A stretch of DNA of 19,234 nucleotides from Planctomycetota bacterium (GTDB taxonomy: Bacteria; Planctomycetota; SZUA-567; H5-PLA8): positions 1 to 19,234 of the forward strand of contig JBBRPR010000100.1 of NCBI GenBank assembly GCA_038227875.1, given 5' to 3'. The position numbers and the translations under genes were made by a program. The stretch's first letter is position 1; each line of letters starts with the position of its first letter. Shown in pieces: positions 486 to 18,803 of the stretch. A model generated the notes under the pieces. It saw only the letters and a list, made by a program, of their open reading frames with translations. It was not told the DNA's origin and searched no databases.

Positions 486-1688
486 TTAACTGTCTTCGCG
501 TTCAAAACGGAGCAACAATTTTTCCATGGCGTTCTGCTCCAACGGGGCGCGTTTGGAGGAGAGCGGATTGAACGGGATGCGGACGAGAAAACCGGCCTGC
601 CCGTTCTTGCTAATTGAGATGTCGCCGCCGTGATGGTGCGCGATGAAGAACGCCGCGAGCAATTCAAGTCCGAGGTCCGTCGGGTCGTCTTCGGCCGGGG
701 CAAACGCGGTGAAGATGGAGGCCACCACCTTTTCGTCCCAAGCCGGACCGTTGGTGCTGATCCGAAGTTCGAAACCAGGAGCGCTCCAGACATCAGGCAC
801 GGCCGTGATGTTGAGCTGCAGTGACTTTGAATTGCTCAGCCTGGCGGCGCGTTTCAACAGAATGGCCAGCATCCGCGGCAGCATGTCGCTGTCGCAGGCA
901 ATTTCACCTATGGGGATGGAGCCCTGAACGGTAACGTCGCCGGAGAGGTGTGGTTTAAGCAGCTCTGCAATGGAGAGTTTGCCGCCGAAATTGTAAGACG
1001 GTGCGACGGTGGCATCGGCGACGTGCTGTACGAGCTGCAAAATGCGGTGGTTCTCCTGCAGCGCAAGCGACCACATGTCCTTCCAGAACTCAGGATTCTT
1101 CAACGCCGAATCGGACACCTCCTGGCGCAGTTTGCTGGGAGCCAGCTCCAGAAATGTTGACAGGGCGGACGTCGAATTGCGGATCTGGTGCGCCAGTCCC
1201 GTGGCCAACACAGAGAGACTGTGGACGCGGTCGGCCACGATGATCCGCTGCAATACGCTGAGTTTTTCGCGAAGCAATAAATTCCGCTCGTGTTGGACGG
1301 TAAAATAGTCCATGGCTCGGAGCAGTACGCCGCGCAGATCGCGAACATTCCAGGGTTTGACAATATATTTATAAATCGCGCCAGCGTTCACTGCTTCAAT
1401 GGCGCTATCCATGTCGGCGTAAGCGGTGGTCAGAATTCGAACAATTTCCGGGCGATCCTGCCGAATTCGCTCCAACAGATTGACACCGGTTTTTCCAGGC
1501 ATGCGCTGGTCGGTGATCAACACGCCGATCCGGGAGCCGTCGGTTTCAATAAGTCCTAAGGCATCGTCAACGTTGGTCGCAGTGAGTATGTTAAAATCGG
1601 CTTCGTAGGCAAGTACGAAGTATTTTAGGGCCTGTTCTTCGTCGTCGACATATAGAATCTTGAAGTCACTGTACTTTTTAGTGCTCAT
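486..1688 (-). CDS. PhcR-like hybrid protein: N-terminal receiver + HisKA + degenerate HATPase
   Basis: REC motifs ILYVDDE, LITDQRMP, LTTAY, YIVKPW. H-box LAHQIRN. Degenerate ATP-binding boxes: LLKRA at N, TNGPAW at G1, IFTAF at F, DLGLEL at G2. ATGA overlap with the upstream sensor at 1685-1688. Confidence 0.88.
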   Translation of the reverse strand: MSTKKYSDFKILYVDDEEQALKYFVLAYEADFNILTATNVDDALGLIETDGSRIGVLITDQRMPGKTGVNLLERIRQDRPEIVRILTTAYADMDSAIEAVNAGAIYKYIVKPWNVRDLRGVLLRAMDYFTVQHERNLLLREKLSVLQRIIVADRVHSLSVLATGLAHQIRNSTSALSTFLELAPSKLRQEVSDSALKNPEFWKDMWSLALQENHRILQLVQHVADATVAPSYNFGGKLSIAELLKPHLSGDVTVQGSIPIGEIACDSDMLPRMLAILLKRAARLSNSKSLQLNITAVPDVWSAPGFELRISTNGPAWDEKVVASIFTAFAPAEDDPTDLGLELLAAFFIAHHHGGDISISKNGQAGFLVRIPFNPLSSKRAPLEQNAMEKLLLRFEREDS

Positions 1689-4255
1689 TGCCGTACCCCC
1701 GCTTCGGACATTGCCAGATCAAAGGAGACTTCCGTCCACTGGCCAGGCTCGCTTTTTACAATCAATTCGGAGCCATGGTTTTTGATGATAGTGTGACAGA
1801 CACTTAAACCCAACCCCATTCCCTCTCCCACGCCTTTAGTGGTGTAAAACGGATCAAAGATTCGAGGAAGGATTGCTTGATCGATGCCAATCCCATTGTC
1901 GCGCACTTTGATTGTTGCTTTCTCGCCAATGGGTGTGATTTCAATCCGAATTTCAGGATCCGCGGGTTTGCGTTTGTTCACGGCCCAAATGGCGTTCAGG
2001 ATCAGGTTGACAAAAACCTGGGTCAGTTGGGTTTTGGAGCCAAAGACAACCTCGTTACTCTGGGGCTCGACCAGGCGGATATTCTTGAATTCGTGCGACG
2101 TCAGGCGCTTGGCCGATTTGATGACATCGGCTAGGGCGACGTCTCGCATTTTGACGTTCTTTTCCGGGTAGGCGAACGCACGGAGATCGGTGACGATGTC
2201 GTTGATGCGCAGCATGCCGTTTTCAATATCGTCGAGCGTCTCTTTGAGCTTGGGATCGCTTTCAGGCGCGGAGTTTTTAGCCAGTTGGATGGCCATCATC
2301 ATGAAGTTCAAGGGATTGAAGATTTCATGCAGGAGTCCGGCGGACAAACCACTGATTGCATTTATCTTTTCACTTTGAATCAGTTGGGACTCGGTTTCCT
2401 TCAATTGGGTTAAGGCCCGCTCCAGATCGGAATTGCGCGTCTTTAATTGACGATCCAGTCGCGAGGCGGCGAGTAGATTCTCGAGGCGGGTGGTCAGTTC
2501 AAGCGTGCTGAACGGTTTGGTCAAAAAATCATCGGCACCGCGCTCCAACGCCGAGAGGCGGGAGCGTTCGTCACCGCGGGCTGTCAGCAGCACCACGCGA
2601 ATATGCCGGGTCTCATCGGAGGATTTCAAATTCTGACAAATATCCAGTCCGTTCATTTCCGGCAGCATCAGGTCGACCAGCACCAGATCAGGTTTTCGAG
2701 CGAGGGCGAGTTCCAGTCCGCGGCGCCCGTCACTGGCTTGAAGCACACGAAATTTTTTCTCCAGCGAAGACACCAAAAACCGGCGCATATCAGGTTCGTC
2801 TTCGATGACCAGGAGCGTGAATTCCCCACTGCCGGTTTCCGATGTTGCCGGCACTTCAGTTGGAACGGACAAGAAGCGGTCCGAACGGCGGTAGATGTCG
2901 GAGATCGGATCATCGGGTGACTCGGGCGCTGGGGTGGGATTGGCCTGCGTCTGCGACAGTGCCGCCAGCGGCAGTTCCAGTGTGAAGGTCGTACCCTTGC
3001 CCACGGTGCTGCATGCGGATAGCTGTCCTCCCTGTTCCTGAACCAGCTCCTTGGCGATGGTCAGGCCAATTCCCGCGCCCTGGTGTTTGCGCGTGGCCGA
3101 CCCGTCCACCTGTCTGAATCGATCGAAAACGTAGGGCAGTTCCTTTTCGGGAATACCTACGCCGGTGTCTTCAAATTCGATGGAGGCGTTGGCCCCCTTG
3201 CTCGACCAGCGCACCTCAATCGTCCCGCCGGAGGGCGTGAATTTAAGCGCGTTGGTGAGAATGTTCAGGATCACTTTTTCCAATCGCCCGCTGTCACCGA
3301 AAACCTCCAGCGGTGTTCCAAGAACGTTCGATTTGATCTTAAGGCCTTTCATGACGGCCAGATGGCGCACCGAATCGACCATCGCCGGAACGAAGGCGTC
3401 GAGATTGATGCGTTCACGCTTGATCTGCGAACGCCCGTCCTGCAGCCGGACCAGCTCCAGCAGGTCGCTGATGAGCTTGAGCAGCCGCAATGAGTTGTCA
3501 CGGATCAACACCAGGGATTCACGAGCCGTGCCGGAAACGTCGTCGTTGCGAAGGATTTCATCGATCGGTGCGATGATCAGTGTCAGGGGCGTGCGGAATT
3601 CGTGGCTGATATTGGCAAAGAACTCCGATTTCAGCCGGTCGGCCTCCGCCAGGTCCTTGTTGCGCTGGTCCAGTTCATGCCTAAGTCGAAAGTCGTCGAA
3701 GCGAGACCGTGACGTAAAGAACGAGGAGACGACGCAGATGATGTCCGTGAGGATGATAAAGTAGACGTTGTTAAAGAGCTCACCGAGATGTCCGGAAATC
3801 GAACCGTGGAGCAAACAGGCGCAGAGATAGGCGCCAAGGGTGACCACGCAGGTGAACAGCGTTTCGCCAAACGTCCACGGCGACAACACCGCCACGGCCA
3901 AGATGGACATATTCAGGCCGGCATAATAGGGAGAGCTTACGCCTTGGGCGCGATAGATCATGAAGGCAATGGCAAATTGAACGGTCAGGGCCCAACTGAT
4001 GGCCAGAGGGCGAATGTGATTCCGGCCGATTTCTGAAAAGTGAAGCGCTAGAATCGAACCCAGGACCACGGCGGAGATGAGTCGAACTGTGAAGAACTCC
4101 CCGATGCGATCCGGGTAAACGAAGTAGTCCAGGCTAATTCCCGCGGGCATCAAGACGAAGGCGAGGATGTTGCCAATCTTGGAATACCGCACACGAAGCT
4201 CCGCATCGGCCTTGGAGTATGCATCGGCGATGACGGAAGGGGCGATCGTGCTCAT
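1685..4255 (-). CDS. Membrane hybrid sensor kinase in PhcS position: ~6 TM + HisKA-HATPase + REC + second HisKA-HATPase
   Basis: Hydrophobic N-terminal ~180 aa. Kinase 1: SHEFRTPL, NILTNALKF, DTGVGI, FDRF, GAGIGL. REC: VIEDE, VDLMLP, LLTA, TKPF. Kinase 2: LHEIFNPL, NLILNA, DNGIGI, FDPFYTTK, GMGLGL. ATGA overlaps at both ends. Confidence 0.93.
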   Translation of the reverse strand: MSTIAPSVIADAYSKADAELRVRYSKIGNILAFVLMPAGISLDYFVYPDRIGEFFTVRLISAVVLGSILALHFSEIGRNHIRPLAISWALTVQFAIAFMIYRAQGVSSPYYAGLNMSILAVAVLSPWTFGETLFTCVVTLGAYLCACLLHGSISGHLGELFNNVYFIILTDIICVVSSFFTSRSRFDDFRLRHELDQRNKDLAEADRLKSEFFANISHEFRTPLTLIIAPIDEILRNDDVSGTARESLVLIRDNSLRLLKLISDLLELVRLQDGRSQIKRERINLDAFVPAMVDSVRHLAVMKGLKIKSNVLGTPLEVFGDSGRLEKVILNILTNALKFTPSGGTIEVRWSSKGANASIEFEDTGVGIPEKELPYVFDRFRQVDGSATRKHQGAGIGLTIAKELVQEQGGQLSACSTVGKGTTFTLELPLAALSQTQANPTPAPESPDDPISDIYRRSDRFLSVPTEVPATSETGSGEFTLLVIEDEPDMRRFLVSSLEKKFRVLQASDGRRGLELALARKPDLVLVDLMLPEMNGLDICQNLKSSDETRHIRVVLLTARGDERSRLSALERGADDFLTKPFSTLELTTRLENLLAASRLDRQLKTRNSDLERALTQLKETESQLIQSEKINAISGLSAGLLHEIFNPLNFMMMAIQLAKNSAPESDPKLKETLDDIENGMLRINDIVTDLRAFAYPEKNVKMRDVALADVIKSAKRLTSHEFKNIRLVEPQSNEVVFGSKTQLTQVFVNLILNAIWAVNKRKPADPEIRIEITPIGEKATIKVRDNGIGIDQAILPRIFDPFYTTKGVGEGMGLGLSVCHTIIKNHGSELIVKSEPGQWTEVSFDLAMSEAGVRQ

Positions 4256-5667
4256 CCGGCGTGCTCCGCACCGGGCGCCTTGCGGATTTCCAGGAAGACA
4301 TTCACGCCAGTGGAATCGGTCCTGACGATCCGCTCCACGGAATCAGCGGGTGAAAGCGACTGCATACCCGCCTCGTCGCGATAGATGAGGTGCCATTCAA
4401 GCAGGTGTTCCATATAGTAACGCACAGGATTGTTCTTATGCACATTCGTCGCCGCGACCAATCCCCCCGGGGTGGTCCAGTTGTAGAAAAGCTGCACGAG
4501 GCGCTTGCAGGTCTTATTCGAAAGATAGTCGAACAAACCGGCGCAATAAACAAGATCATATTTGGACGGTTGGGTTTCGCGGATCCCCGCGGCTTCTTTC
4601 AGCAGGTCGTCAACCGATTTGTGTATAAAAGTAATATTTAATTTACGGTTGGCCGCACGCTCCGCATCCGCAATCTTCAACTTTGTATAATTTAATGTCT
4701 CTTCATTAAAATCGAGCAATTCCAACGTACATTGTGAACTCAGCGGATTGTGTATAAATTGTTGGACTTCGACGGCAGGCCCGCATCCGACATTTAGTAT
4801 GGAAAGCTGCCGCGACTGTGACGCGGCCCGGGCGGATTCCTTTTCCAGTATTTCCTTTAGCATTTCGATGCGATTGCGATGGGCCGCCGCAGGCGCGGTA
4901 TTGATATTAAATGAATTCACAACCTTCGCGTACGTGGTTGGGCCTTCCGAGGGGTTGCGCAACATCATATTCACCATCTCGTAGTCGCCAGCATATCCCA
5001 GGGGTTTGGTAAAGGTTCGATGGACAAAGGGGGCGCACAGGATGAGGGGATGAATTTCACGGCGTGCAAAGGAGCGGTGCGCATCGGACTCTTCCAAGGC
5101 TACCGCGCCGGCCTCATGCTCGAAGTTTTCAAACAATTCACGTATCTTGGGCGCCAGTGGTATCTCCACCTCCGCACAAAACTCGTTCTTTAATTCCTGA
5201 GAATCGTCCTGTGCGGGTGTGCTCGATTCAACCTCGACTTGTTCCAGCCAGCGGCTTAGCTCGCCAAGGAAGGAGCGGAGTTTGGTGATGACGACCTGAT
5301 ACGACGGGCGCAGAGCGTGGGTGACTTCCCACTTTTTGACGAAGTCTTCGACCTCGCGTCGGAGTTCGGGCCCGGGCGTCATGCCAGCCAAGTCTGACCA
5401 TGAGTCCACCAATGTTGCCGAGACTATGGTCATCAATCCAGTGGCAATAATATTGCTGACGACTGCGCGCCCCGAATATAAAAATCTTCCCTTCCGAAGA
5501 ATTTGTAACGATTGCAGCACTTCACTCATTTGGACGACGGAGTACGGATTGTAGACTTCGAAGATTACATTAGAGCGGGTAACGTGGATGAGCGTACCGC
5601 GTCCACTGACGTCTCGGGTATTTCGGAAGGAGACAAGGCTATCGGTGTTGTCAATACGATTGTCCAT
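4252..5667 (-). CDS. phcB: PhcB-like class I SAM-dependent methyltransferase (candidate hydroxy-fatty-acid methyl ester signal synthase), 471 aa
   Basis: SAM motifs ILNVGCGP, LLDFN, YDLVYCAGLFDYL, PGG. KPLGYAGDYEM is a motif I associate with PhcB homologues. It lies directly upstream of a sensor kinase and a REC-HisKA gene, the phcBSR order. Start moved to ATG 5667 (AGGGA RBS, promoter just upstream). Confidence 0.75.
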   Translation of the reverse strand: MDNRIDNTDSLVSFRNTRDVSGRGTLIHVTRSNVIFEVYNPYSVVQMSEVLQSLQILRKGRFLYSGRAVVSNIIATGLMTIVSATLVDSWSDLAGMTPGPELRREVEDFVKKWEVTHALRPSYQVVITKLRSFLGELSRWLEQVEVESSTPAQDDSQELKNEFCAEVEIPLAPKIRELFENFEHEAGAVALEESDAHRSFARREIHPLILCAPFVHRTFTKPLGYAGDYEMVNMMLRNPSEGPTTYAKVVNSFNINTAPAAAHRNRIEMLKEILEKESARAASQSRQLSILNVGCGPAVEVQQFIHNPLSSQCTLELLDFNEETLNYTKLKIADAERAANRKLNITFIHKSVDDLLKEAAGIRETQPSKYDLVYCAGLFDYLSNKTCKRLVQLFYNWTTPGGLVAATNVHKNNPVRYYMEHLLEWHLIYRDEAGMQSLSPADSVERIVRTDSTGVNVFLEIRKAPGAEHAG

Positions 5668-5688
5668 GGTGTCCCTGTGTGTTAGAGG

Positions 5689-5717
5689 ATTATAGTACAC
5701 CTTGCAAGTGGGTTCAA
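5689..5717 (-). promoter_or_regulatory. Sigma70-type promoter of the phcB-like operon
   Basis: Minus strand TTGAAC (5717-5712), a 17-nt spacer, then TATAAT (5694-5689), ending 21 nt before the ATG at 5667. Confidence 0.7.
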
Positions 5718-5776
5718 CTCTGTACAAGCTTGAAAAGTGGGTTAAGGTCGAATTACACACGAATATTGAGGTAGTT

Positions 5777-6898
5777 GTGACTACTGGTGATCAAAACGAG
5801 AAGAAGTTGCCGGAAGAATCTTTCAACCTGGAACGGTTGGCGCTGATGGGCGAAATGCTGCCGGAGGTGGCGCATGAGATCCGGAACCTGATGCAGGTGG
5901 TGACGGGTTTCATTCAGGTCGAGTTGAGTCAGAACACGTTCAGCCCCACCACGCAGCGGCGGCTACAACGTTCATATGAGCACGCCATGTTTGCCAGCGA
6001 ATTGACGGGCAGCCTGTTGAGATTTGTTCGTCCACACTCGGAGGAATTCGGAGATCCTGGGGAGGCCGTGAAAGTCGTGGTGGATCTGTTTCGATCTCTG
6101 CATAGACAGGGAACCGCGATTCAACTGGAGATGCAGGGTCCACGCAGTTCGGTAGTGCTCCCCACCGGATACCTGCAGCTGATCTTCGCCAATATTGTGA
6201 AGAACGCTCTTGATGCATTGGAAAATGCGGACAAACCGCAAATCTCAATTCGGGTAAATACGGACATTGATCCCGTACAAATTTGTATATCTAATTCCGG
6301 TCCGCATATTTCTGAGAGCGTGTTGGCCCACCTGTTTTCAAAATATTCAACTAGCAAGCCGTCGGCTCGCGGTACCGGGTTAGGTTTGCATATTGCAGCC
6401 AAGCTAGTGGCCGAGGCTGGGGGTCAAATCCTGGCGGAGAATGTGGCCACCGGCGGAGTGAAATTTGAAATTTCGCTTCGAAAGGCGAGTCAACCTTCCA
6501 TCAACCGCGCGCCCCAATCCCTGGAAACGCGGATGGAGGGTGCGCGCATTATGCTGGTGGACGATGATCAACTTGTAAGAGAAGTGCTGCAGCTCATGAT
6601 CGTGGAATCGGGCGGACACGTAGTGCGGACGTGTGGATCGGGGCAGGAGGCGCTACAAGCGGTGGCGTCAACAGACTTCGATGCGCTCTTGCTCGATCTC
6701 CGCATGAAAGGCCTCTCCGGCCGTGAGGTCTTTGCTCAACTGGATGCCGGTTATCAGAAGAAGGTGATCTTCATAACGGGCGACAATCTTGATAAGTCCG
6801 CGCAGAACTTCTTGAAGGGTACGGGTCAACCGGTGCTGCTCAAGCCGCTGAAAATAGCCGCAATTGTCCAAGCTGTGCAACGGGTTCATGGCATTTAA
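5777..6898 (+). CDS. Soluble hybrid histidine kinase (HisKA-HATPase-REC) with no input domain
   Basis: VAHEIRN, NIVKNA, NSGPHI, LFSKYSTSK, GTGLGL. C-terminal REC with LVDDD, LLDLRM, FITG, LKP. Start moved to GTG 5777 (GAGG upstream), which removes the overlap with the divergent gene and promoter. Confidence 0.88.
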   Translation: MTTGDQNEKKLPEESFNLERLALMGEMLPEVAHEIRNLMQVVTGFIQVELSQNTFSPTTQRRLQRSYEHAMFASELTGSLLRFVRPHSEEFGDPGEAVKVVVDLFRSLHRQGTAIQLEMQGPRSSVVLPTGYLQLIFANIVKNALDALENADKPQISIRVNTDIDPVQICISNSGPHISESVLAHLFSKYSTSKPSARGTGLGLHIAAKLVAEAGGQILAENVATGGVKFEISLRKASQPSINRAPQSLETRMEGARIMLVDDDQLVREVLQLMIVESGGHVVRTCGSGQEALQAVASTDFDALLLDLRMKGLSGREVFAQLDAGYQKKVIFITGDNLDKSAQNFLKGTGQPVLLKPLKIAAIVQAVQRVHGI

Positions 6899-7260
6899 TG
6901 AACGTGCCGCGACATCAGGCTTCTGGCGAGGGCGATGAGCTGGGATGGATTATACGGCTTAGCGATAAAGCCGCTGTTTTCGTCCAATTCAAAGGGCGGG
7001 TCTGAATATCCTGAGGTATACAGAACCGGGAGCTCGGGATGCTTCTGGCGTAGGATTTGGGCCAATTCGGTTCCACCCATCTGCGGCATCATCAGGTCTG
7101 CAACGAGCAGACCGATATCGTACCTTTTCAGTTCAAAGATGCGTATAGCCTCCATCGCCCCGCAAGCTGCGATGACGTTCATCTCCGCTGCTTGAAGGAG
7201 ATCCAAAGTAATCCCAAGGACTTCAGCGTTGTCATCGACCAATAGCACGGATGGGTACAT
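6895..7260 (-). CDS. Single-domain response regulator (CheY-like), 121 aa
   Basis: VLLVDDN, VADLMMPQMGG, YTSGY, IAKPY. Start moved to ATG 7260 (GGAG RBS). Stop overlaps the stop of the convergent kinase. Confidence 0.88.
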   Translation of the reverse strand: MYPSVLLVDDNAEVLGITLDLLQAAEMNVIAACGAMEAIRIFELKRYDIGLLVADLMMPQMGGTELAQILRQKHPELPVLYTSGYSDPPFELDENSGFIAKPYNPSQLIALARSLMSRHVH

Positions 7261-7690
7261 AGACACTCCAGTTTTGACTAGTTGGGACCAGCAGTTCCGT
7301 TGCTCATCCTTGGCCTGCGTGGTGAACCTCCACTGGTCTAGGCGCCTCACGGGGAAATCGGGAGTAGGGTCCGGTGTAAGGGTGCTTTCAGCGGGCAGCT
7401 GGCGTATCAGCCCGTTGAAAAAGGCTTCGTCCTCCAATTTCTCCGTGAAACGCCTGGCCGTAATGGCGATTCGCGGCGCAGGGCAGTGTTTATCAACGGG
7501 CTGCAATGCGCAAATTTCATGCACTTACGATTTGTGACAATCTGCCCACGTGAATCGAACGGGATCGTTGCACTCGAATTGTGCAGCTGCCTCTATATTG
7601 AGCAAATTTCATCGGAACTTTTCGCCTGATTCTTCGAATTACATTGGCTTGTTATTTGTTGTAAAAACCCGCAAGAGGGTTGCACTTTCA

Positions 7691-8068
7691 ATGAAGCAGA
7701 AAATACACGTACTCGTCTGTGATCAAGATGTGCAGACGCGGGAGTTCGTCCTGAAGTTACTGACTGCCGCCGGGTATATCGTACATGTGTTTGAAGGCAC
7801 GGAATCGCTGGACGCGATGGCCAGCCATCCCGTCGAATTGGCGCTAGTCGATGTGGTCGATCCGGAAAGCGACGGATTTTACCTGGTGGATGGCCTGCGG
7901 TTGGGTGGAATGCGAGGACCGATTGTGTTTATGTCGGCAGCCATCACCGCACATCTCAAAACTGAAATGTCCAACTTTTCAAATATACGCGGAATCCTGC
8001 AGAAGCCATTGGTAGCCCGAGAGCTCCTTCAAAAAGTGGGCAGCATCCTGGAACTTCAAGAGGTCTAA
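7691..8068 (+). CDS. Single-domain, somewhat atypical response regulator, 125 aa
   Basis: VLVCDQD, ALVDVVDP, DG, VFMSA, LQKP. Start moved to ATG 7691. Confidence 0.8.
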   Translation: MKQKIHVLVCDQDVQTREFVLKLLTAAGYIVHVFEGTESLDAMASHPVELALVDVVDPESDGFYLVDGLRLGGMRGPIVFMSAAITAHLKTEMSNFSNIRGILQKPLVARELLQKVGSILELQEV

Positions 8069-8106: not shown

Positions 8107-8152
8107 ATTCGCAACACGACCTTTAACCACTGATTTGGGCTTGAATATCACC

Positions 8153-8449
8153 ATGGACAAAGTTGACGTTTTGAAAGTGTCGAATCGAACGGGAATTGCC
8201 GCTGAACAGATCGTTAGATGGCACGTTCACGAAGGACCGCTTTATGTGTCCAAAAATCCCGGCCGCCCCAAGGGGAAGACGCCGCGACCACCGGGGTTCA
8301 TCTCCATTGGCGATGCCGTTAGGAAGTACCACGTCAAGGCCGACCGGATCCGTCAATGGCGAGCCGAAGGTCTGCCGACGGTAAACGTGGGCCGGATGAT
8401 CGCGCTTAAAGAGTCACAACTTCGAAAACTCATTAAACCCAAAAAGTGA
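8153..8449 (+). CDS. Small basic DNA-binding protein, MerR/excisionase-like HTH (apparently two HTH units with an AT-hook-like linker)
   Basis: ISIGDAVRKYHVKADRIRQWRAEGLPTVNVGR fits HTH_17/Xis/Nu1-type winged HTH. The N-terminal segment shows a similar pattern, and the linker contains PGRPKG. Start is ATG 8153 or TTG 8135. Confidence 0.7.
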   Translation: MDKVDVLKVSNRTGIAAEQIVRWHVHEGPLYVSKNPGRPKGKTPRPPGFISIGDAVRKYHVKADRIRQWRAEGLPTVNVGRMIALKESQLRKLIKPKK

Positions 8450-11108: not shown

Positions 11109-11139
11109 AAAAAAAGCCCTGCGCATTTCGCACAAAGGC
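11109..11139 (-). terminator. Intrinsic terminator downstream of the terminase gene
   Basis: Minus strand GCCTTTGTGC-GAAAT-GCGCAGGGC hairpin (two G-U pairs, one bulge) followed by T7. Confidence 0.65.
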
Positions 11140-11367
11140 GTGTCGGAAACGAAGTCGGATAATACGTTAACTATTAGGGCATGTCTGCGGCGTCGGTCGG
11201 TCGGCAATCGCCTCACGCGTGGCATCCGGCCTCCACTGCAGCCGTTTGAGCGTTATGCCGCTGAACCTTTCGGCACTGCCATTGCAATGAACGGAATCGG
11301 CACGAGTGTGCGGCTTTAGTGCACCGAATGGATGTTCAACAAGAGGTTGGAGCACATCGACACGCCT

Positions 11368-12891
11368 TTATAGAAACGGTCGCCTGTGCGCCAGAAAATT
11401 TGCAGCGCTGAGGGCGTAGATCAAGGAATGCAGCGCATCATCCGGGCGCCCCGGCGATTTGACGTAGCGGATCACCCGGCGTTCTTCGTCAGGGACGCAG
11501 CGCTCGGATGCCACTTCCAACAGATATGTTTCCATTTCGCTCTGACGGGGAAACGTAATCCGGCGCGACTTGACCCGAAATACGAGGTCGGAAATGGCCT
11601 TGGTCTTGTTCATGCTGAGAAGATGCCGATAATCAGTCTCGACTTTCGTGGAGAAATCCATTTCCTCGGTGTAGGACATGCCGAAATTCGGGATGTTCAT
11701 CTGCAGACGGTCAAAGAGCATCGGCCGGAATACCGATCCGTTTCCCTGCGAATCGACGGCAATTGCCGAGACATTCATACCCCTGCAAATATCCGCAACA
11801 AAGGCGAGCACCTCGTCGGGACTTTTACCGGGCATCAGTCTAAACCAGTTCAACACATGAAAAACGCGCTGCGTGTCCAACGTGCCTAGGCAAACTGATG
11901 TCGTCGCGTGACCGGTGTTCCCCCAATCGATTCCCGCGATGATGCTGAAATTGAGATCGGGAGTCAGCGCGGCGCGGGTCTCGATCGGCGGCCGCGCGGT
12001 GCAGCAGGCAGTCAAGTCTGAGAGGGTCAGCGACAGATCGCCTTCCGTGATGCTCTCCCCCAGAACCTCGTTTTTGAACTGAGCGAACTGGTACGTCTGT
12101 TTCTTTTCGAGGACCGTTGAAAAATTCATCCATGGCACAATCAACTGTGGGATGCGAAAACTCTCCGCGAATGTTGATCCAGGATTTAATTCCTTCCAGA
12201 TTCCCAGCGCGGGATTGAGCGGCTGCTGGCAGCCGGGGCAACGATAGCCATCCGCTCCAAGGATCTGTTCGTTGGCCTGGCTGTCCTGCCCACAACCCTG
12301 GCACGAAATCATCCAGACATTGGCCGTGCCCCGTACGTACGCCCGTTCGAGCTCATTGTCGGAAAGTTTGGCCGTGCCGCTGATCACCGTGTGCGGATCG
12401 GTCTGATGCGACTGAGTCTCTTCGAGCACGGCCAGGCTGTTGGTCGCGCAATCTTGAAATTCATCGATGGCCAGGATCCGGGCACTGACGCCGCGGGCTG
12501 CATCCGGGTTATGGTAGGCCGAATCCAGAATTAATTCGCTCCCATTGGAAAAGACGATGTGCTTCATCGCCGTGCGCGTACTGGCAACCAGGCATCTTTT
12601 GAGGATCGGGCTTTCTTCGATGATCGGATGCAATCGGGAAGCCACCAGGCGGTGGATCTGTTCCTGGCGCGGCAGGATCAGCAGCGCGGTGGTGGGCGCC
12701 CGCACCACGAGATTGAATGTGATCAGCTTGATCAGCGTCGTCGACTTTTCGCACTGGCGCGCGGTGCACAAAACCGTGCGCCGCGCGCTTTCCAGGGCGT
12801 TATAAATTTTCGACAGGTAGGGGCGCCCGACATTGTCGAGTCGTTTGTTCTGGTGGATGTAAAACCGACCCGCGAAGTCGTAGAGGCGCAT
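11368..12891 (-). CDS. terL: Phage terminase large subunit (GpA-like), 507 aa
   Basis: Adenine-binding-like RPYL, Walker A variant ARQCEKSTT, Walker B ILAIDEFQD and coupling motif ISGTAK. Zn-ribbon CQGC...CPGC, FKNEVLG, RNase H-like nuclease IIAGIDWG, IAVD and C-terminal PDDALHSLIYA. Confidence 0.88.
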   Translation of the reverse strand: MRLYDFAGRFYIHQNKRLDNVGRPYLSKIYNALESARRTVLCTARQCEKSTTLIKLITFNLVVRAPTTALLILPRQEQIHRLVASRLHPIIEESPILKRCLVASTRTAMKHIVFSNGSELILDSAYHNPDAARGVSARILAIDEFQDCATNSLAVLEETQSHQTDPHTVISGTAKLSDNELERAYVRGTANVWMISCQGCGQDSQANEQILGADGYRCPGCQQPLNPALGIWKELNPGSTFAESFRIPQLIVPWMNFSTVLEKKQTYQFAQFKNEVLGESITEGDLSLTLSDLTACCTARPPIETRAALTPDLNFSIIAGIDWGNTGHATTSVCLGTLDTQRVFHVLNWFRLMPGKSPDEVLAFVADICRGMNVSAIAVDSQGNGSVFRPMLFDRLQMNIPNFGMSYTEEMDFSTKVETDYRHLLSMNKTKAISDLVFRVKSRRITFPRQSEMETYLLEVASERCVPDEERRVIRYVKSPGRPDDALHSLIYALSAANFLAHRRPFL

Positions 12892-12901
12892 GACTGGGCC
12901 G

Positions 12902-13267
12902 TTACCGGGTGTCGCCGAGGAGATTCTGCAACTGTTCGCGCGGGATCAGCGCGCTCATCTCTTCGAGCAACTCCGGATCCGCCAGCAAGCGCACCTTCAG
13001 CCGATCGGAGATGGGAATGGTCGCCGACTCGCCTTCTTTCGGCAGCAGATCAGCGAGCGTTTTCAGCGCGCCTTGGTAGACCTTAAGCTCCGCCGGCGAG
13101 ATGGTGCCGTTGAGCCCCATCCCAATGAGCTGCTCTATGGCCCGAGAAACGTCGTTGCGACTTTTGTATTTCCGTGGGGGCTGGACGCCGGGAGCAGGTC
13201 CCTGCGGAGGCGCAGGTCGAGGCGTAGGCGGCGTTTCAGGGACGCTTTCAGTGTGGGGTTCGGTCAT
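12902..13267 (-). CDS. Small helical protein with Pro-rich N-terminus; candidate terminase small subunit
   Basis: AGGAG RBS 6 nt before the ATG. Stops 10 nt before the terL ATG. Size and position suit TerS; the function is inferred from position only. Confidence 0.6.
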   Translation of the reverse strand: MTEPHTESVPETPPTPRPAPPQGPAPGVQPPRKYKSRNDVSRAIEQLIGMGLNGTISPAELKVYQGALKTLADLLPKEGESATIPISDRLKVRLLADPELLEEMSALIPREQLQNLLGDTR

Positions 13268-13301
13268 GATTGACTCCTAAACGGTTGACGTGGGCGGTGC
13301 A

Positions 13302-14057
13302 TCACAGGCTCAAGCGCGCGCCCATAAGCGCTTCAGCAACTTCAGGGATCGAATGCAGCGGGCCGGAAAGATTGAGCGTGCGGATCATGCGCAATACGCG
13401 GCGGACCGTCGCCTGCCGATCAACCTCCATCACGCGCGCGAGCGTGGCGACGCTCACGTCCGAACAGTGCGAAAAAACCAGGACAGCCGCGAACCAGGCC
13501 CAGAGCGGCACATGGCTATTCTCCAGAATGGTTCCGATGAACATCGATTGCTGCCGACCGCAATTGCGGCAGCGCCAGGCGTTCCGATTGGGTAACAGCA
13601 GCCGCTGACCCGAGCAGGCGCAGCAGGGGACGTCCTTCTGGAACGTGGCAAGAGCGACAATCAATTCAGTTGCATCGACGGCCTGTAAAACCCTGAGGGC
13701 CGCGAGGGTCGCGTGGGGAAGCTCGGACGTAAATTGCAGCTTCTGATTGCGAGTAGGGGCTGGTGAACCCGATTTGTAGAGTCGCATCAGCCGTTCTACA
13801 TGCGTGAGCAGGCGCAGGGCATCCTCGCGCGACTTCCTCCCGGTAAACGAATCGGGTGATGCGGCGCAAATATCCAGCGACCTCTGCGCTTGGGTCAGAA
13901 GGTTACTGAGCAGCTGTTGAACCTGGTGTTCCGCGTCCCGTTCCATGCTTGCAGTTAACCGGAATCGGCAAGAATGCGCCATCCGTCGGCAGAGGGAATG
14001 CAAGCAATCGTGCAAGAATTGTTTTTTAAGTGCTGGATTGCCCGTTTCACCCTGCAC
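13302..14057 (-). CDS. Protein with C-terminal IS1595-transposase-like Zn-ribbon + HTH and no DDE domain
   Basis: CCAC...WRCRNCGRQQSMFIGTILENSHVPLWAWFAAV...VSVATLARVMEV...TVRRVLRMIR follows the IS1595 N-terminal pattern (CxxC..CxxC..SxxxGTIFExSxxPLxxW..S..LAR..T..R.L..IR). The ORF ends about 22 aa later. Start uncertain (GTG 14057, ATG 13982 or ATG 13946). Confidence 0.7.
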   Translation of the reverse strand: MQGETGNPALKKQFLHDCLHSLCRRMAHSCRFRLTASMERDAEHQVQQLLSNLLTQAQRSLDICAASPDSFTGRKSREDALRLLTHVERLMRLYKSGSPAPTRNQKLQFTSELPHATLAALRVLQAVDATELIVALATFQKDVPCCACSGQRLLLPNRNAWRCRNCGRQQSMFIGTILENSHVPLWAWFAAVLVFSHCSDVSVATLARVMEVDRQATVRRVLRMIRTLNLSGPLHSIPEVAEALMGARLSL

Positions 14058-15146: not shown

Positions 15147-16739
15147 TCACTTTCCAACCACGTTGGCTCCGGTTGTGGTCACGTTCAGATTCAGGATTCC
15201 GGCGTAGTCGGCGCCGCCGAAGGTGATCGTGACCGGTATCGTGGCTTTGCCGCTGCCGCCTGCGGGAACACCAGCGGCGGTAAGGACGCTGCTCAGGTTG
15301 GCGCTGATCTTTGCGGTGAACGGCGCGACGGACGTGCGCTTGCCGAACTTGAACGAGCTCGGCACCGCGGTGCCAGAGCCCTTGGCGTTGAGCGCGAACG
15401 TCTTGCTGACGCTGCCGATTGAGATGGTCAGCGGCCCGGAGAGGCTGGTGACGGTCGTTGGCAAGGCGATCGATCCGCCCAGCGTCAGGACGTCCTTGCC
15501 CAGCGACGGGTTCTTGCCCTTTAGCGCGGCCTTGGTGAGCGTAATCGTGCCGGGCGGAGTGGCGGCGGCGGTGACGGTCACCGTCGTGTTGCTCTTGATC
15601 GTGTTGCCCTGTGTGTCGAACATCGTCGCCGTCACGGCGTAGACCTGCGGCGCAGTATAGGTATGCGTCGCGCTGGCTCCACCGGCGGCCGGGGAACCGT
15701 CGCCGAAATCTCAACTGACCGTCAACGCCACGCCATTGGGGTCTACCCCGGACACGGTGGTGGTGACCACTTGGCCGACCTTCGCCGGGTTGGGGGTTGC
15801 GGTCGCCGGACTGACGACGACCAGCTTGCCCTTCACCAGGTACATGACGGCATTGGAGACGCCGCCTCCGGGCGTGGGGTTGGCGACGGAGATGGCGAAG
15901 GAACCGGCCGCGGCCAGGCTCGCCGCGGGGATGGTGGCGGTGAGCTGCGTCGCGCTGACAAACGTGGTCGTCAGGTTGATGCCGGCGAACTGGATCTTCG
16001 AGGCACTGACGAAGTTGACGCCCGAGACGGTGATGGCAGTTGCGGGATCGCCAGCGGTGGCGGTGAGCGGCGAAACATCGGTCAGCACCGGCGCAGGGTT
16101 GTCCACGCTGAAGCTGGACGCCGCCGACGTACCACCACCCGGCGCGGGATTGACGACGGTGATGGACGCAGTGCCGGCAGAGCTGAGGTCGCCGGCGGGA
16201 ATCACCACAATCAGCAGCGTGGAGTTAATGTACGCGGTCGGACGGCTCAGCCCATTGAAGTTGACCGTGGCCGACGGGGCGAAGCCGGTGCCGTTGAGCA
16301 TGATGTTCAGGCCAGGGGTGCCGACGAGTGTCGACGACGGGCTGATGCTGGTGATGACCGGCACGGCGTTCGGGGCGGTCACGTCGAAATTGACGGCCGA
16401 AGAAGTTCCGCCGCCCGGACCCGGGTTGAAGACCGATACCGCGTTGGTCTTGACCACTGCCAGGTCGGCCGCGGTGATTGCGCCGGTGATCTGCGTGGAG
16501 GAGACAAATGTCGTGACGCGGGCCAGGCCATTCCACTGGCAGACCGAACCGGGAACGAAATTCGAGCCAGTGATGGTCAGCGAGAAGGCCGAAGCTCCCA
16601 GCGTCGCAGTATTCTGGCTCAGGTTGCTGATCGACGGCGCCGGGTTGACGATCGTGAACGTCGCGGCCGCAGACAGGCCTCCGGCGGGGAGCGGATTGAA
16701 GACAGTGACCTCGAATGCCCCGCGCTTATCATTGTCCAT
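15147..16739 (-). pseudogene. 5'-truncated IPT/TIG-repeat + PKD surface protein gene with one in-frame nonsense codon
   Basis: Three complete IPT-like units (NP.P.I...SP...G.NF...TFVS.TQ.TA.I.A.DL...NP.PGGG.S). The PKD motif reads VS*DFGDG..THTY, with TGA at 15713-15711 replacing Trp. ORFs 15711..16739 and 15147..15635 are in the same frame. No signal peptide. Confidence 0.85.
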
Positions 16740-16932
16740 GCCCCTCGCTGATGATCTGCCAAAGTTTCTGCGCCAAAACCGGTGGGTGGAACGTGCCTTA
16801 TTAATAAAACCGTTAGAATTTAGATCGAACTCTATTGTGCGGAACTGATTTCGATGCGTGGTGGAATACCTCGCCCAATATACAAGGAGTAAGGGTAAAT
16901 AACAGAGATCGAAATCGAGATAAAATCAAAGC
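16711..16932. repeat. Diverged direct repeat, copy 2
   Basis: Same orientation as 14742..14957. Exact 27-bp block at 16806-16832. Begins with a paralogue of the last codons of the wHTH gene (LECPALIIVHAPR* vs FERPELFLVHNTRE*). Confidence 0.92.
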
Positions 16933-17390: not shown

Positions 17391-17864
17391 ATGATAAAAA
17401 TCTGCGCCAACGTGGCGAAGAAGATTCCCTTACCGGGAATAGATTTCAGCAGTCAGCAATTTGGTGCGGCGATTGAAATTGAAGTTGCACACGGCGAGTC
17501 GCCCGATGTCATTCGGCTGCGCCTGCAGGAATTGTACAACCTACTCTCGGAGACGGTGGACAAGCAATTCGAGATCGCATCGATATCGAAAAAGTCCGGC
17601 AAGCGCGCGCTGCTTTCGCCGGGCGGCTGCAAAGAATGCCAGGCACTTCATGGCGCCAAGACCCTTCGTGCGGTCTCGGCCACAGCGGCGCAACGAAGGG
17701 CCATATGCGCGATCTGTGCCAGTCTCGATCTGGATATCGCGGGTGTTCTGGCGGATCGCAATGTTTCGGACTTGGCTGAACTCAGCGTTCAGGCTGCGTC
17801 CCGCCTGATCGACGAGCTCCGATCACGACAGAACGGACATTCCGGACCCGATCAGTCTACCTGA
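17391..17864 (+). CDS. Hypothetical mobile-element protein, 157 aa
   Basis: AAGGAGG RBS. N-terminal beta-beta-alpha-like part (KKIPLPGIDFSSQQFGAAIEIEV) and a C-terminal helical motif ATAAQRRAI...LSVQAASRLIDELR. Confidence 0.8.
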   Translation: MIKICANVAKKIPLPGIDFSSQQFGAAIEIEVAHGESPDVIRLRLQELYNLLSETVDKQFEIASISKKSGKRALLSPGGCKECQALHGAKTLRAVSATAAQRRAICAICASLDLDIAGVLADRNVSDLAELSVQAASRLIDELRSRQNGHSGPDQST

Positions 17865-17960
17865 GTTTGTTTTCCAATTAAATCGCGACAGGTCATTGGG
17901 ATTGCGCCATTAATTAAGTCGCGGCGTATTATCCCATTTAAATCAAGAGGAGGAATTCGT

Positions 17961-18803
17961 ATGAACGCTACGGCGATGGCGTCCGCGTCGGACTCCAAAC
18001 GGGCCGACGTCAAAAGCATCGAACATCTTTCGTATAGCAGTCTGACGACCTATGCCCAGTGTCCTCGAAAATTTTACTATCGGTATATTCAGCACGCGGA
18101 ACCGGAATTTATTCCGGCAGCGTTGGCTTTCGGCGGCGCCATCCATCGGGTTGCGGAATTGATTCATCATGCCTGCCTTGAAGGTCAGCTGCTTCCCGAG
18201 TTGGAATCTCTAATGGAACGCTTCGATGAAGCGTGGAGGTTGTCGACTGCCGGCGGGATTCCTATCAGTTATGCCCGTCTGGATGATGAGCGCTCCTTGC
18301 GAGCGCTGGCTGAGCGGATGCTCAGCGCATACCGTGAACACGTCTTCGCGATGAGTCAGCACCGTACCTGCCAGGTTCTCGCGATCGAGCACGTTGAACA
18401 GTTCCACTTTTTGAAGTCTCTGCCGCCCCTGGAAATGCGCGTGGATTTGGTTGAATTGGCTCCCAACGGCGACCTGATCATTTCCGATTTGAAAACCAGC
18501 CGTTCGCGCTGGAACGAGATCAAGCTCCGCGAAGCCATTCCTCAATTGGTTTTGTACTCCATCGGGCTAACACCGCTGTTTCGTGCCATGAAGGCTGAAC
18601 GGATCATGGCGCGCTTTATCGTGATCACAAAGGCGAAGTCGCCGTTGATTCAGGAACTGAATTTTTATCTCAATCAATCGGACGTGGACAAGGTCAAACG
18701 CCAGGTGAACGAGGTCTGGCATGGTATTCAGCAGCAGGTCTATATTCAACGGCCCGGATGGCCGTGCGCACAGTGTCCGTATAAAACTCGCTGCCTTGGA
18801 TAA
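17961..18803 (+). CDS. PD-(D/E)XK nuclease, RecB/AddB/Cas4-like (PDDEXK_1), with 1+3 Cys Fe-S staple
   Basis: HLSYSSLTTYAQCPRKFYYRY, FGGAIH, AIE, RVDLV, ISDLKTS, QLVLY, CAQCPYKTRC. GAGGAGG RBS. Confidence 0.9.
   Translation: MNATAMASASDSKRADVKSIEHLSYSSLTTYAQCPRKFYYRYIQHAEPEFIPAALAFGGAIHRVAELIHHACLEGQLLPELESLMERFDEAWRLSTAGGIPISYARLDDERSLRALAERMLSAYREHVFAMSQHRTCQVLAIEHVEQFHFLKSLPPLEMRVDLVELAPNGDLIISDLKTSRSRWNEIKLREAIPQLVLYSIGLTPLFRAMKAERIMARFIVITKAKSPLIQELNFYLNQSDVDKVKRQVNEVWHGIQQQVYIQRPGWPCAQCPYKTRCLG

Follow-up and report, generated by a model that had tools for sequence, protein, structure and literature searches.

A three-gene terminase cassette that recurs without head genes in a Planctomycetota genome and in related loci

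Large terminases count as hallmark genes of tailed viruses, and their presence serves to call prophages and viral contigs. What, then, is an intact large-terminase gene (terL) with neither portal nor capsid gene beside it? Such a gene lies in a 19,234-bp stretch of DNA from a Planctomycetota bacterium (GenBank assembly GCA_038227875.1, contig JBBRPR010000100.1), here called the window, which is the entire contig C100 of a 176-contig, 9.34-Mb metagenome-assembled genome (MAG; 88% complete, 4% contamination). It is the last of three co-oriented minus-strand open reading frames (ORFs; 11368-14057), which encode, in order, two proteins here called c5 and c4 and the large terminase TerL (Table 1). 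An earlier reading made from the letters alone (the sequence-only reading) had described an intact 507-aa TerL preceded by two co-oriented genes at gaps of 34 and 10 nt, as the ORF coordinates confirm, and had proposed a maintained stand-alone module rather than prophage debris. That proposal is supported by the recurrence of the trio, by its neighbours and by its ratios of nonsynonymous to synonymous substitution (dN/dS): that the three genes form a conserved unit, selected, mobile and existing apart from head genes, we regard as established, and they look like a maintained module rather than the remains of a prophage.

TerL matched the Pfam families GpA_ATPase (PF05876; E 5.8e-15, 56.1 bits, above the cut-off of 25.6) and Terminase_6N (1.4e-4). 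The sequence-only reading had named the GpA ATPase and nuclease domains as the check on its assignment; the ATPase was thus recovered, and the nuclease (GpA_nuclease, PF20454; 0.0089) stayed at 15.7 bits, below its cut-off of 22.5. A match to PHROG 675 ('terminase large subunit', 4.5e-49) spans residues 16-499 and so includes the C-terminal half, and a PDB search with a profile of the TerL family found T4-type gp17 (5.4e-7). Across eight aligned sequences, with identities down to 34%, the invariant residues are R45/Q46/E48/K49/T51, D143/E144/Q146/D147, C197/C200/C218/C221, D322, D380 and D484/D485/H488, and we read the blocks that they form (RQxEKST, DEFQD, the four Cys and the acidic residues) as putative Walker A, Walker B, zinc-ribbon and nuclease motifs. 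The C-terminal tails show no conservation between clades and are therefore uninformative on portal docking. Homologues from a word-index search are 507-509 aa long at 87, 84, 56, 55, 42 and 37% identity. The family is rare: TerL was found in one of 60 related genomes (G010, 35% identity) and in one of 400 other sampled Planctomycetota genomes at E <=1e-20 (again G010), 190 of 1.84 billion cluster representatives matched at E <=1e-30, and a plasmid collection gave only six weak matches (20-28% identity).

Related loci were obtained from pattern scans (five loci from species genomes, 69 from metagenomes and one weak viral contig), and gene families were defined by all-against-all BLASTP clustering of all stop-to-stop ORFs of 76 loci. 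A FastTree phylogeny of 66 TerLs, with several long branches and with SH-like support in place of a bootstrap, puts every row that has c5/c4 neighbours, the window and G010 included, into one clade of 28 rows (SH-like 84), hereafter the trio clade; a second clade of 34 rows (SH-like 99) has the upstream families c9 and c12 instead. The order c5-c4-TerL occurs in 15 of the 15 trio-clade loci that have at least 1.5 kb upstream of terL. BLAST clustering placed c5 and c4 in 13 of these, and the window and G010 were added by profile comparison with hhalign: the window c4 matched a profile of 18 c4 proteins built without it (95.8%, E 7e-9, 100 columns), the window c5 matched a c5 profile (13 proteins, none of them from the window) over residues 140-227 only (98.8%, E 1.2e-16), and the ORFs upstream of terL in G010 are c5-like (97.7%) and c4-like (80.9%). 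Across relatives, c5 is typically ~310 aa and c4 ~145 aa long, and in four loci a fourth gene, c26 (~190 aa), precedes c5. The trio frames are intact in the assessable loci, at TerL identities down to ~34%.

Head genes are missing from these neighbourhoods. The neighbour set consisted of 150 non-TerL ORFs of >=90 aa at 18 trio-clade loci, chosen by a greedy longest-ORF rule that took an opposite-strand ORF in place of c5 at two loci, with thresholds of E <=1e-4 for Pfam and E <=1e-5 for PHROGs. Portal, capsid, protease, scaffold and tail families were matched by none of the 150, and the single 'head and packaging' row was the Laminin_G_3 domain of a 1105-aa DUF4838 protein; the prediction that the trio would recur without head genes is thereby upheld. 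Within the window, TerL was the only 'head and packaging' match, and no virion protein was found among the ORFs scanned (22 + 13 with Pfam, 18 with PHROGs). The earlier statement that 19 kb contain no virion gene therefore stands, bounded by the assembly because the window is the whole contig. Instead of head genes, the flanks hold typical Planctomycetota genes (PSD/PSCyt, DUF1559/N_methyl, sulfatase, GatB, Ogt-AraC, heparinase/alginate lyase, 2-hydroxyacid dehydrogenase). Host genes begin 0.1-2 kb downstream of terL in five loci (L005, L010, L013, L020, L031), and one stands directly upstream of c5 in L047; it is on such recognisable host genes that the argument from missing head genes rests. 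Island-type genes occur at some loci (SNF2 helicase, YhcG/DUF1016, Cdc48-like AAA phrog_8638, HigBA-like pairs, DUF772 transposase), and PADLOC matched 10 of the 150 neighbours, at 6 of the 18 loci (e.g., PDC-S02, ZorD/DpdE-like SNF2, IetA-like AAA).

Portal and capsid genes next to close homologues of terL would have pointed to a recent deletion, but the only homologues found beside such genes lie outside the trio clade and belong to cultured Bacillus phages (~25% identity). These Andromedavirus phages (e.g., Eoghan gp9; 136 matching phage records) have the nearest cultured TerLs, 25-27% identical over ~95% of the protein. The window TerL has the same ATPase and Cys-insert architecture as GpA-type phage terminases, probably with the same nuclease, and its putative catalytic residues are conserved. 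In Eoghan, terL is directly followed by portal, head morphogenesis, protease, scaffold and capsid genes, none of which follows it in the trio clade, and the genes upstream are c5 and c4 rather than a recognised small terminase (TerS). Because the nearest cultured phages have the classic TerL-portal-head order, the cassette represents a derived state.

The cassette evolves under purifying selection. In Nei-Gojobori comparisons of pairs of related loci, made on stop-to-stop ORFs so that the ratios are slightly inflated, dN/dS was 0.07-0.17 for TerL (eight pairs, dS 0.18-2.5), 0.19-0.21 for c5, 0.12-0.19 for full-length pairs of c4 and 0.28 for c26; the selection that the sequence-only reading had predicted is thus found in TerL, and in the partners at ~0.2. 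Pairs outside these ranges were a near-identical TerL pair (0.60 at dS 0.011), an 82-codon partial c4 pair (0.59) and one saturated TerL pair. The values come from related loci other than the window's closest relatives (84-87% identical), which were compared as proteins.

The cassette is also mobile. Loci L024 and L028 are 91.6% identical in nucleotides over 4.1 kb only, starting ~170 nt ahead of c26 and ending shortly beyond the repeat array that follows terL (c26-c5-c4-TerL plus array), and their flanks are unrelated on both sides; it follows that the cassette moves, or is exchanged, as a unit. Neither terminal inverted repeats nor target duplications were seen at the L024/L028 boundaries. 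A separate stretch of 2.2 kb upstream of the cassette, comprising YhcG/DUF1016 (PADLOC PDC-S02) and a neighbour, is 91% identical in nucleotides between L015 and L023 (Table 1), the TerLs of which have an identity of only 47%, so that the islands in which the cassette sits are mosaic.

The first partner, c5, is proposed to be a DNA-recognition subunit. Its C-terminal part has a zinc ribbon of the pattern CxxC...CxxC, followed by a conserved helical stretch that we read as a probable helix-turn-helix (HTH). The nearest ESM Atlas clusters of the window c5 carry Zn_ribbon_IS1595 (PF12760; score 0.91), Pfam found the same domain in five c5 proteins of relatives (2e-7 to 5e-5), the window c5 aligning to that part of the family at 98.8%, and a match to NCBIfam transpos_IS1595 (NF033547) reached 28 bits (cut-off 75) and covered positions 2-95 of 215. 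Thus c5 shares with IS1595 transposases the zinc ribbon and the HTH stretch after it; unlike them, it ends shortly past the HTH, lacks the DDE catalytic domain and has a long helical N-terminal part instead. The window c5 (residues 144-217; 1.5e-10) and 10 other c5 proteins match phrog_25593, of unknown function. In the AlphaFold model, residues ~141-240 form three short strands and four helices at a predicted local distance difference test score (pLDDT) of 83-94, and the N-terminal part is of low confidence; most members have an N-terminal NAxxHGL motif that the window copy lacks. The second partner, c4, had no match in Pfam, PHROG, PADLOC or NCBIfam for the window copy, and its model (pLDDT 65) shows five helices behind a disordered N-terminus. 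It is possibly an adaptor between c5 and TerL.

Downstream of terL, 12 aligned loci, or 13 if L041, which nearly duplicates L023, is counted, carry an array of ~190-250 bp (Table 1). Four direct sites, with start-to-start spacings of 31, 23 and 54 nt and a conserved AAGTCC between sites 3 and 4, lead to a CACCA-N-TGGTG palindrome right after site 4, which is followed by two or three inverted sites; each site is an imperfect palindrome of ~18 nt, with a consensus of roughly TGACAA-N4-6-TGTGTCC. At least four copies of an 11-mer (one mismatch allowed) were present in 4 of 27 windows downstream of terL, vs. 1 of 381 control windows from the same loci. An nhmmer profile built from 11 loci recovered L015 and the near-duplicate L041, and nothing else in the loci. 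The array is kept despite inserts after terL, of two genes in L023 and of ~0.9 kb in L039. Co-variation of c5 with the array motif was not shown: the c5 proteins of L015 and L041 share the site motif, yet they are only 36% identical and thus no more alike than other pairs. A scan of IMG/VR for site 4 plus the palindrome gave three matches, all of them short chance ones with neither array nor TerL.

The window itself has a different arrangement after terL. Its ~230-nt spacer holds no plausible ORF and ends in a hairpin that may mark the end of the operon, in agreement with the non-coding DNA and terminator described earlier; the hairpin alone is weak evidence, because a scan gave 11 terminator-like sites in 4 kb, vs. 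3.8 +/- 1.7 in shuffled sequence. The spacer is bracketed by a perfect inverted 12-mer pair, the arms of which lie 212 nt apart, and these two copies of AAAGGCGTGTCG are the only ones in the 9.34-Mb assembly. One arm resembles the array sites (GACA...TTTGTG) by eye only, and the pair may be a reduced counterpart of the relatives' arrays.

Three roles had been suggested for a module of this kind: a satellite's hijacking of packaging, a dispersed packager resembling a gene transfer agent (GTA), and an ATPase-nuclease repurposed for element processing. The GTA-like option proved the weakest. Our tentative preference is for a self-contained unit that would recognise, cut and translocate DNA, with capsids supplied in trans. 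In this scheme c5, perhaps together with c4, would take the small-terminase role and bind a specific DNA site, which in roughly half of the relatives would be the array that immediately follows terL and, in the window, the unique inverted 12-mer pair. The two partners would load TerL at this cos/pac-like site, where TerL would cut the DNA, and TerL would then pump DNA into procapsids that the cassette does not encode. The procapsids might come from a co-infecting or resident phage, plausibly a large phage that carries a TerL of the sister clade. The cassette would thus be a minimal satellite-like element, comparable to a natural cosmid, by which its own DNA and possibly flanking host DNA would be transduced.

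Aspects of this scheme have counterparts in known systems. The cos site of phage lambda, used by the founding GpA terminase, has the layout cosQ-cosN-cosB with R-sites for Nu1. The relatives' arrays resemble it in that a short palindrome is accompanied by a number of phased repeats, putative protein sites, close to terminase genes; they differ in lying after terL and not before a small-subunit gene, and in having sites on both sides of the palindrome in opposite orientation. The likeness is one of layout, with no sequence similarity, and the window itself has no array. Classical phage-inducible chromosomal islands (PICIs), Staphylococcus aureus pathogenicity islands and P4-type satellites share the idea of redirecting helper packaging through an own recognition subunit or site, and a repeat-rich cis site beside a key gene. 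In the part of PMC10085698 drawn on here, PICIs are described as carrying terS and typically no other phage genes, with integrase and replication modules in the order integrase, regulator (alpA/stl/merR type), primase-replicase and terS. The cassette carries terL and has neither integrase nor replication gene, and among the window ORFs Pfam and PHROGs matched no integrase or primase-replicase, the nearest to a regulator being a marginal MerR_1 HTH (Table 1); we do not class it as a PICI. Capsid-forming PICIs (cfPICIs), according to the same part of that paper and to a preprint drawn on in part, are chromosomal and carry their own terL apart from the helper phage (PMC10085698; bioRxiv 10.1101/2022.09.08.507074), along with capsid, head-tail adaptor, connector, integrase, regulator and primase-replicase genes (PMC10085698). 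The cassette has terL and none of these others.

Several observations weigh against the preferred scheme of capsids supplied in trans. No capsid supplier and no link between a helper and the cassette were found. The partners c5 and c4 match no small-terminase family in Pfam or PHROGs, their fit to TerS being their position directly upstream of terL; fold searches with their models (pLDDT ~65) were uninformative (Foldseek best E 1.6, VIA-align best Z 4.8), and profile searches of the PDB found no match to c4 and, for c5, generic zinc ribbons only. The family match of the window c5 is confined to the C-terminal 88 residues. The array is absent in 14 of the 27 relatives that have downstream sequence, and in these 14 the GTGTC core is not significantly enriched downstream (10 observed vs. 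6.2 expected, P ~0.1). The array profile found nothing significant in the window or its genome (best E 0.74, on another contig), and because the array is absent, one inverted 12-mer pair is all that speaks for a cis site in this copy. Genes for integration, replication or regulation are missing from the cassette, in contrast to every satellite family described in the sections of PMC10085698 consulted. The loci are mostly short metagenome contigs, and the lack of head-gene matches is weak when taken by itself, because the phage-like sister clade is also blank in Pfam.

A more specific formulation is possible but more doubtful: a minimal selfish packaging cassette made up of three or four genes (c26, c5, c4 and TerL), in many copies with a cos-like multi-site array, and of nothing more, or else a terminase joined to an IS1595-type DNA-binding subunit as the nuclease and motor of a novel class of mobile element. 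If the first form were true, the procapsids of any compatible phage would package DNA from the cassette's site, and neighbouring host chromosome would be transduced; in either form, this would be the first terminase lineage kept for long outside the virion gene set. No description of a capsid-less terL cassette was found in the literature searched, which left out most subscription journals. To our knowledge, the phages and mobile elements of Planctomycetota have been little studied. A capsid-less TerL lineage embedded in chromosomal DNA would cause false prophage calls, and it would suggest either a novel form of capsid exploitation or the use of a packaging motor outside the capsid. The DNA-binding protein, adaptor, motor and ~200-bp array would furthermore make a compact set for the study of how terminases are aimed.

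Use of the cassette without any capsid is less probable but a serious rival, with several observations on its side. TerL would then act as an ATPase-nuclease aimed by c5, either as an anti-phage system by which DNA of related phages is cut or stripped, or as the cassette's own cutting and moving machinery, the cassette being a novel kind of transposon or site-specific mobile element with the array as its recognition site. The IS1595-type zinc ribbon and HTH of c5 (PF12760, the partial NCBIfam match and the Atlas clusters) would suit such a role, as would the RNase H fold of TerL nucleases, which is also that of DDE transposases. The occurrence of the cassette at 92% identity in different flanks without an integrase, its sporadic distribution (1/400) and the few defence-like neighbours that PADLOC recognised are likewise consistent with it. 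However, most neighbours are housekeeping genes and not parts of defence islands, and PADLOC 2.0 assigned no family to the window TerL, c4 and c5 or to c5, c4 and c26 of three other loci (E <=0.01), with the sole exception, among the trio proteins, of a 38-residue zinc-ribbon match to Cas12u4 (0.0013). The array sites lie at one end of the cassette only, and no terminal inverted repeats or target duplications were seen where L024 and L028 diverge. We also know of no terminase that acts without a portal.

Another serious rival, though a less likely one, is that the trio is only the recognisable portion of a larger element, mobile or prophage, the other genes of which are too divergent to be recognised or lie past the contig ends. 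One argument for such an element is the sister clade. Its 12 annotated loci lie on contigs of up to 205 kb with genes for an Rpb1-like RNA polymerase, single-stranded-DNA-binding protein, RNase HII, HU, RdgC and sigma factors near terL; they look like large phages, yet Pfam found no portal or capsid gene near terL in any of the 12. Phage-type genes also occur near the trio in G010 and L023 (Cdc48-like AAA phrog_8638 at 1e-133, DUF2997, Cas4-like nuclease), many trio-adjacent ORFs have no annotation, and the window and G010 have two more genes in common. These encode the 157-aa and 280-aa proteins of Table 1, which are 34% and 41% identical to their G010 homologues (BLASTP, E 1e-24 and 3e-70); the latter stand directly after terL, and the genes may be linked to the cassette, an association seen in only one other locus. 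The 280-aa nuclease matched Cas4 models at 8.5e-10, below the NCBIfam cut-off. Against a larger element stand the host genes within 2 kb downstream of terL in five loci and directly upstream of c5 in L047, the common unit of L024 and L028, which is only 4.1 kb long, and L023, in which 10 kb on each side of the cassette gave no structural gene match.

Further features of the sister clade and of G010 were recorded. In nine sister-clade loci on contigs of 23-205 kb (L036, L038, L043, L044, L053, L059, L061, L064 and L071), the order is c12 (700-790 aa), c9 (300 aa), TerL. The protein c9, tried as a relative of c5, gave 0.1% in hhalign, and a role of c12 as the portal was not confirmed, there being no PDB sequence match and no Atlas match. 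Some TerLs of the sister clade and of the representative library are ~930-1460 aa long, which suggests inteins or fusions. On contig C36 of G010, the TerL homologue is followed by genes for a 170-aa protein, a Cas4-like PD-(D/E)XK nuclease, a JAB-domain protein and a ThiF/E1-like protein, so that a ubiquitin-like conjugation gene set adjoins the terminase; DUF6744, the Cdc48-like AAA ATPase and DUF2997 lie further on, and a DUF772 transposase lies upstream.

That the trio is prophage debris, left intact by a recent deletion of portal and head genes, is improbable. The window does offer grounds for the idea: the gene adjoining terL is broken, the relatives' array is missing, the N-terminal part of c5 is unmatched to its family, and further remnants of phage origin are present in the genome, among them a capsid fragment on contig C112. 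The broken gene is a degraded copy of a large repeat protein, and a blastx alignment to its 1542-aa paralogue on contig C16 passes through frames 2, 1, 3, 2, 1 and 2, i.e., at least five frame changes; the earlier claim that this gene is broken is therefore borne out, and its figure of about seven frameshifts was not confirmed. The breaks could be an artefact of mis-assembly in a repeat-rich gene, and the C16 paralogue ties the window contig to the rest of the genome. At the family level the debris reading is already contradicted, by intact trios in all 15 assessable loci at TerL identities down to ~34% and by dN/dS well below 1 at related loci. For the window copy, homologues at 87% and 84% identity have a TerL of exactly the same length, and third-codon-position GC content, at 0.68-0.71 in the three genes, does not stand out from the genome (mean 0.72).

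Least probable of all is a dispersed GTA-like packager serving head genes elsewhere in the same genome, for which a head protease and major capsid gene on contig C35 might speak, since the one complete head module, that of contig C92, comes with a TerL of its own (phrog_38), G010 has the cassette and no match to six portal and capsid families, and the cassette, at one in 60 relatives and one in 400 other genomes of the phylum, is far too sporadic for a terminase serving a lineage-wide head-tail cluster. The C92 module is an ordinary one, with a TerL (3e-87) of a different family, unrelated to that of the window, a portal, a head-tail adaptor and a 603-aa ORF that matches major head protein families (phrog_10, 3.5e-41). 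The families sought in G010 (91% complete) were PF04860, PF05136, PF05133, PF06074, PF05065 and PF03864; the negative for PF06074 counts for little, because its control gave no match in any genome. C35 carries a compact element with a primase, a primase/helicase, a RuvC-like resolvase, a head maturation protease (phrog_53, 1e-60) and a major head protein (phrog_10), and the first 12 kb of the contig showed neither a terminase nor a portal. This genome thus has capsid genes without a packaging enzyme and, in the window, a packaging enzyme without capsid genes.

Table 1. Positions of the cassette, of its downstream sites and of other features named in the text (window positions count from the first letter of the 19,234-bp contig).
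Feature	Locus	Position	Strand	Description
c5	window	13302-14057	minus	251 aa, GTG start; helical (coiled-coil-like) N-terminal part, four-Cys zinc ribbon, putative helix-turn-helix region
c4	window	12902-13267	minus	121 aa, ATG start; disordered proline-rich N-terminus, five predicted helices
TerL	window	11368-12891	minus	507 aa, ATG start, intact; GpA-type large terminase: ATPase, four-Cys insert, putative RNase H-type nuclease
Inverted-repeat arm 1	window	11358-11369		perfect 12 nt (CGACACGCCTTT), overlaps TerL stop codon
Inverted-repeat arm 2	window	11134-11145		AAAGGCGTGTCG, 212 nt from arm 1, abuts terminator-like hairpin
Terminator-like hairpin	window	11137-11117	minus	9-pair stem and T-run, operon end
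Array	L005	1191-1376
Array	L015	8000-8141
Array	L016	4614-4801
Array	L017	3675-3847
Array	L023	13202-13401
Array	L024	11189-11374
Array	L028	10679-10868
Array	L031	1150-1337
Array	L033	1072-1256
Array	L034	951-1137
Array	L039	1751-1940
Array	L046	910-1094
Common 2.2-kb stretch	L015	309-2530
Common 2.2-kb stretch	L023	4574-6793
157-aa protein and 280-aa PD-(D/E)XK (Cas4-like) nuclease	window	17391-18803	plus	PDDEXK_1, 3.2e-31
Region of the TerL homologue in G010	L004 (contig C36)	600-11906	minus
Head module	L083 (contig C92)	8596-16429
Compact element with capsid genes	L084 (contig C35)	1016-9871
Broken repeat-protein gene	window	~8.8-11.08 kb	minus	adjoins terL
MerR-type small ORF	window	8135-8449	plus	marginal MerR_1 HTH, 22.0 bits vs. 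cut-off 21.6
Signalling gene cluster	window	486-8068		856, 400, 398, 209 and 172 aa; also a 502-aa protein
IPT/TIG-repeat protein	window	15711-16739	minus	342 aa
Antisense ORF	window	15663-16751	plus	362 aa, overlaps the preceding feature

The remaining window genes lie outside the cassette. No tRNA gene was found in the window or in 16 related loci, and no Rfam family in the window, so that the spacer holds no known RNA and an attachment site of the tRNA type is absent. The MerR-type ORF, found where the signalling cluster gives way to the broken repeat gene, could encode an excisionase-like regulator. The signalling cluster belongs to the host and lies 3.3 kb from the stop codon of terL; it is a dense run of hybrid histidine kinases and response regulators that includes a protein with a methyltransferase domain. 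On the other side of the cassette, the antisense ORF has no matches and is probably spurious, and the protein that it overlaps has three IPT/TIG repeats, is of the 'choice-of-anchor Z' type (NF058597, 1.9e-88) and has a third-position GC content of 0.83.

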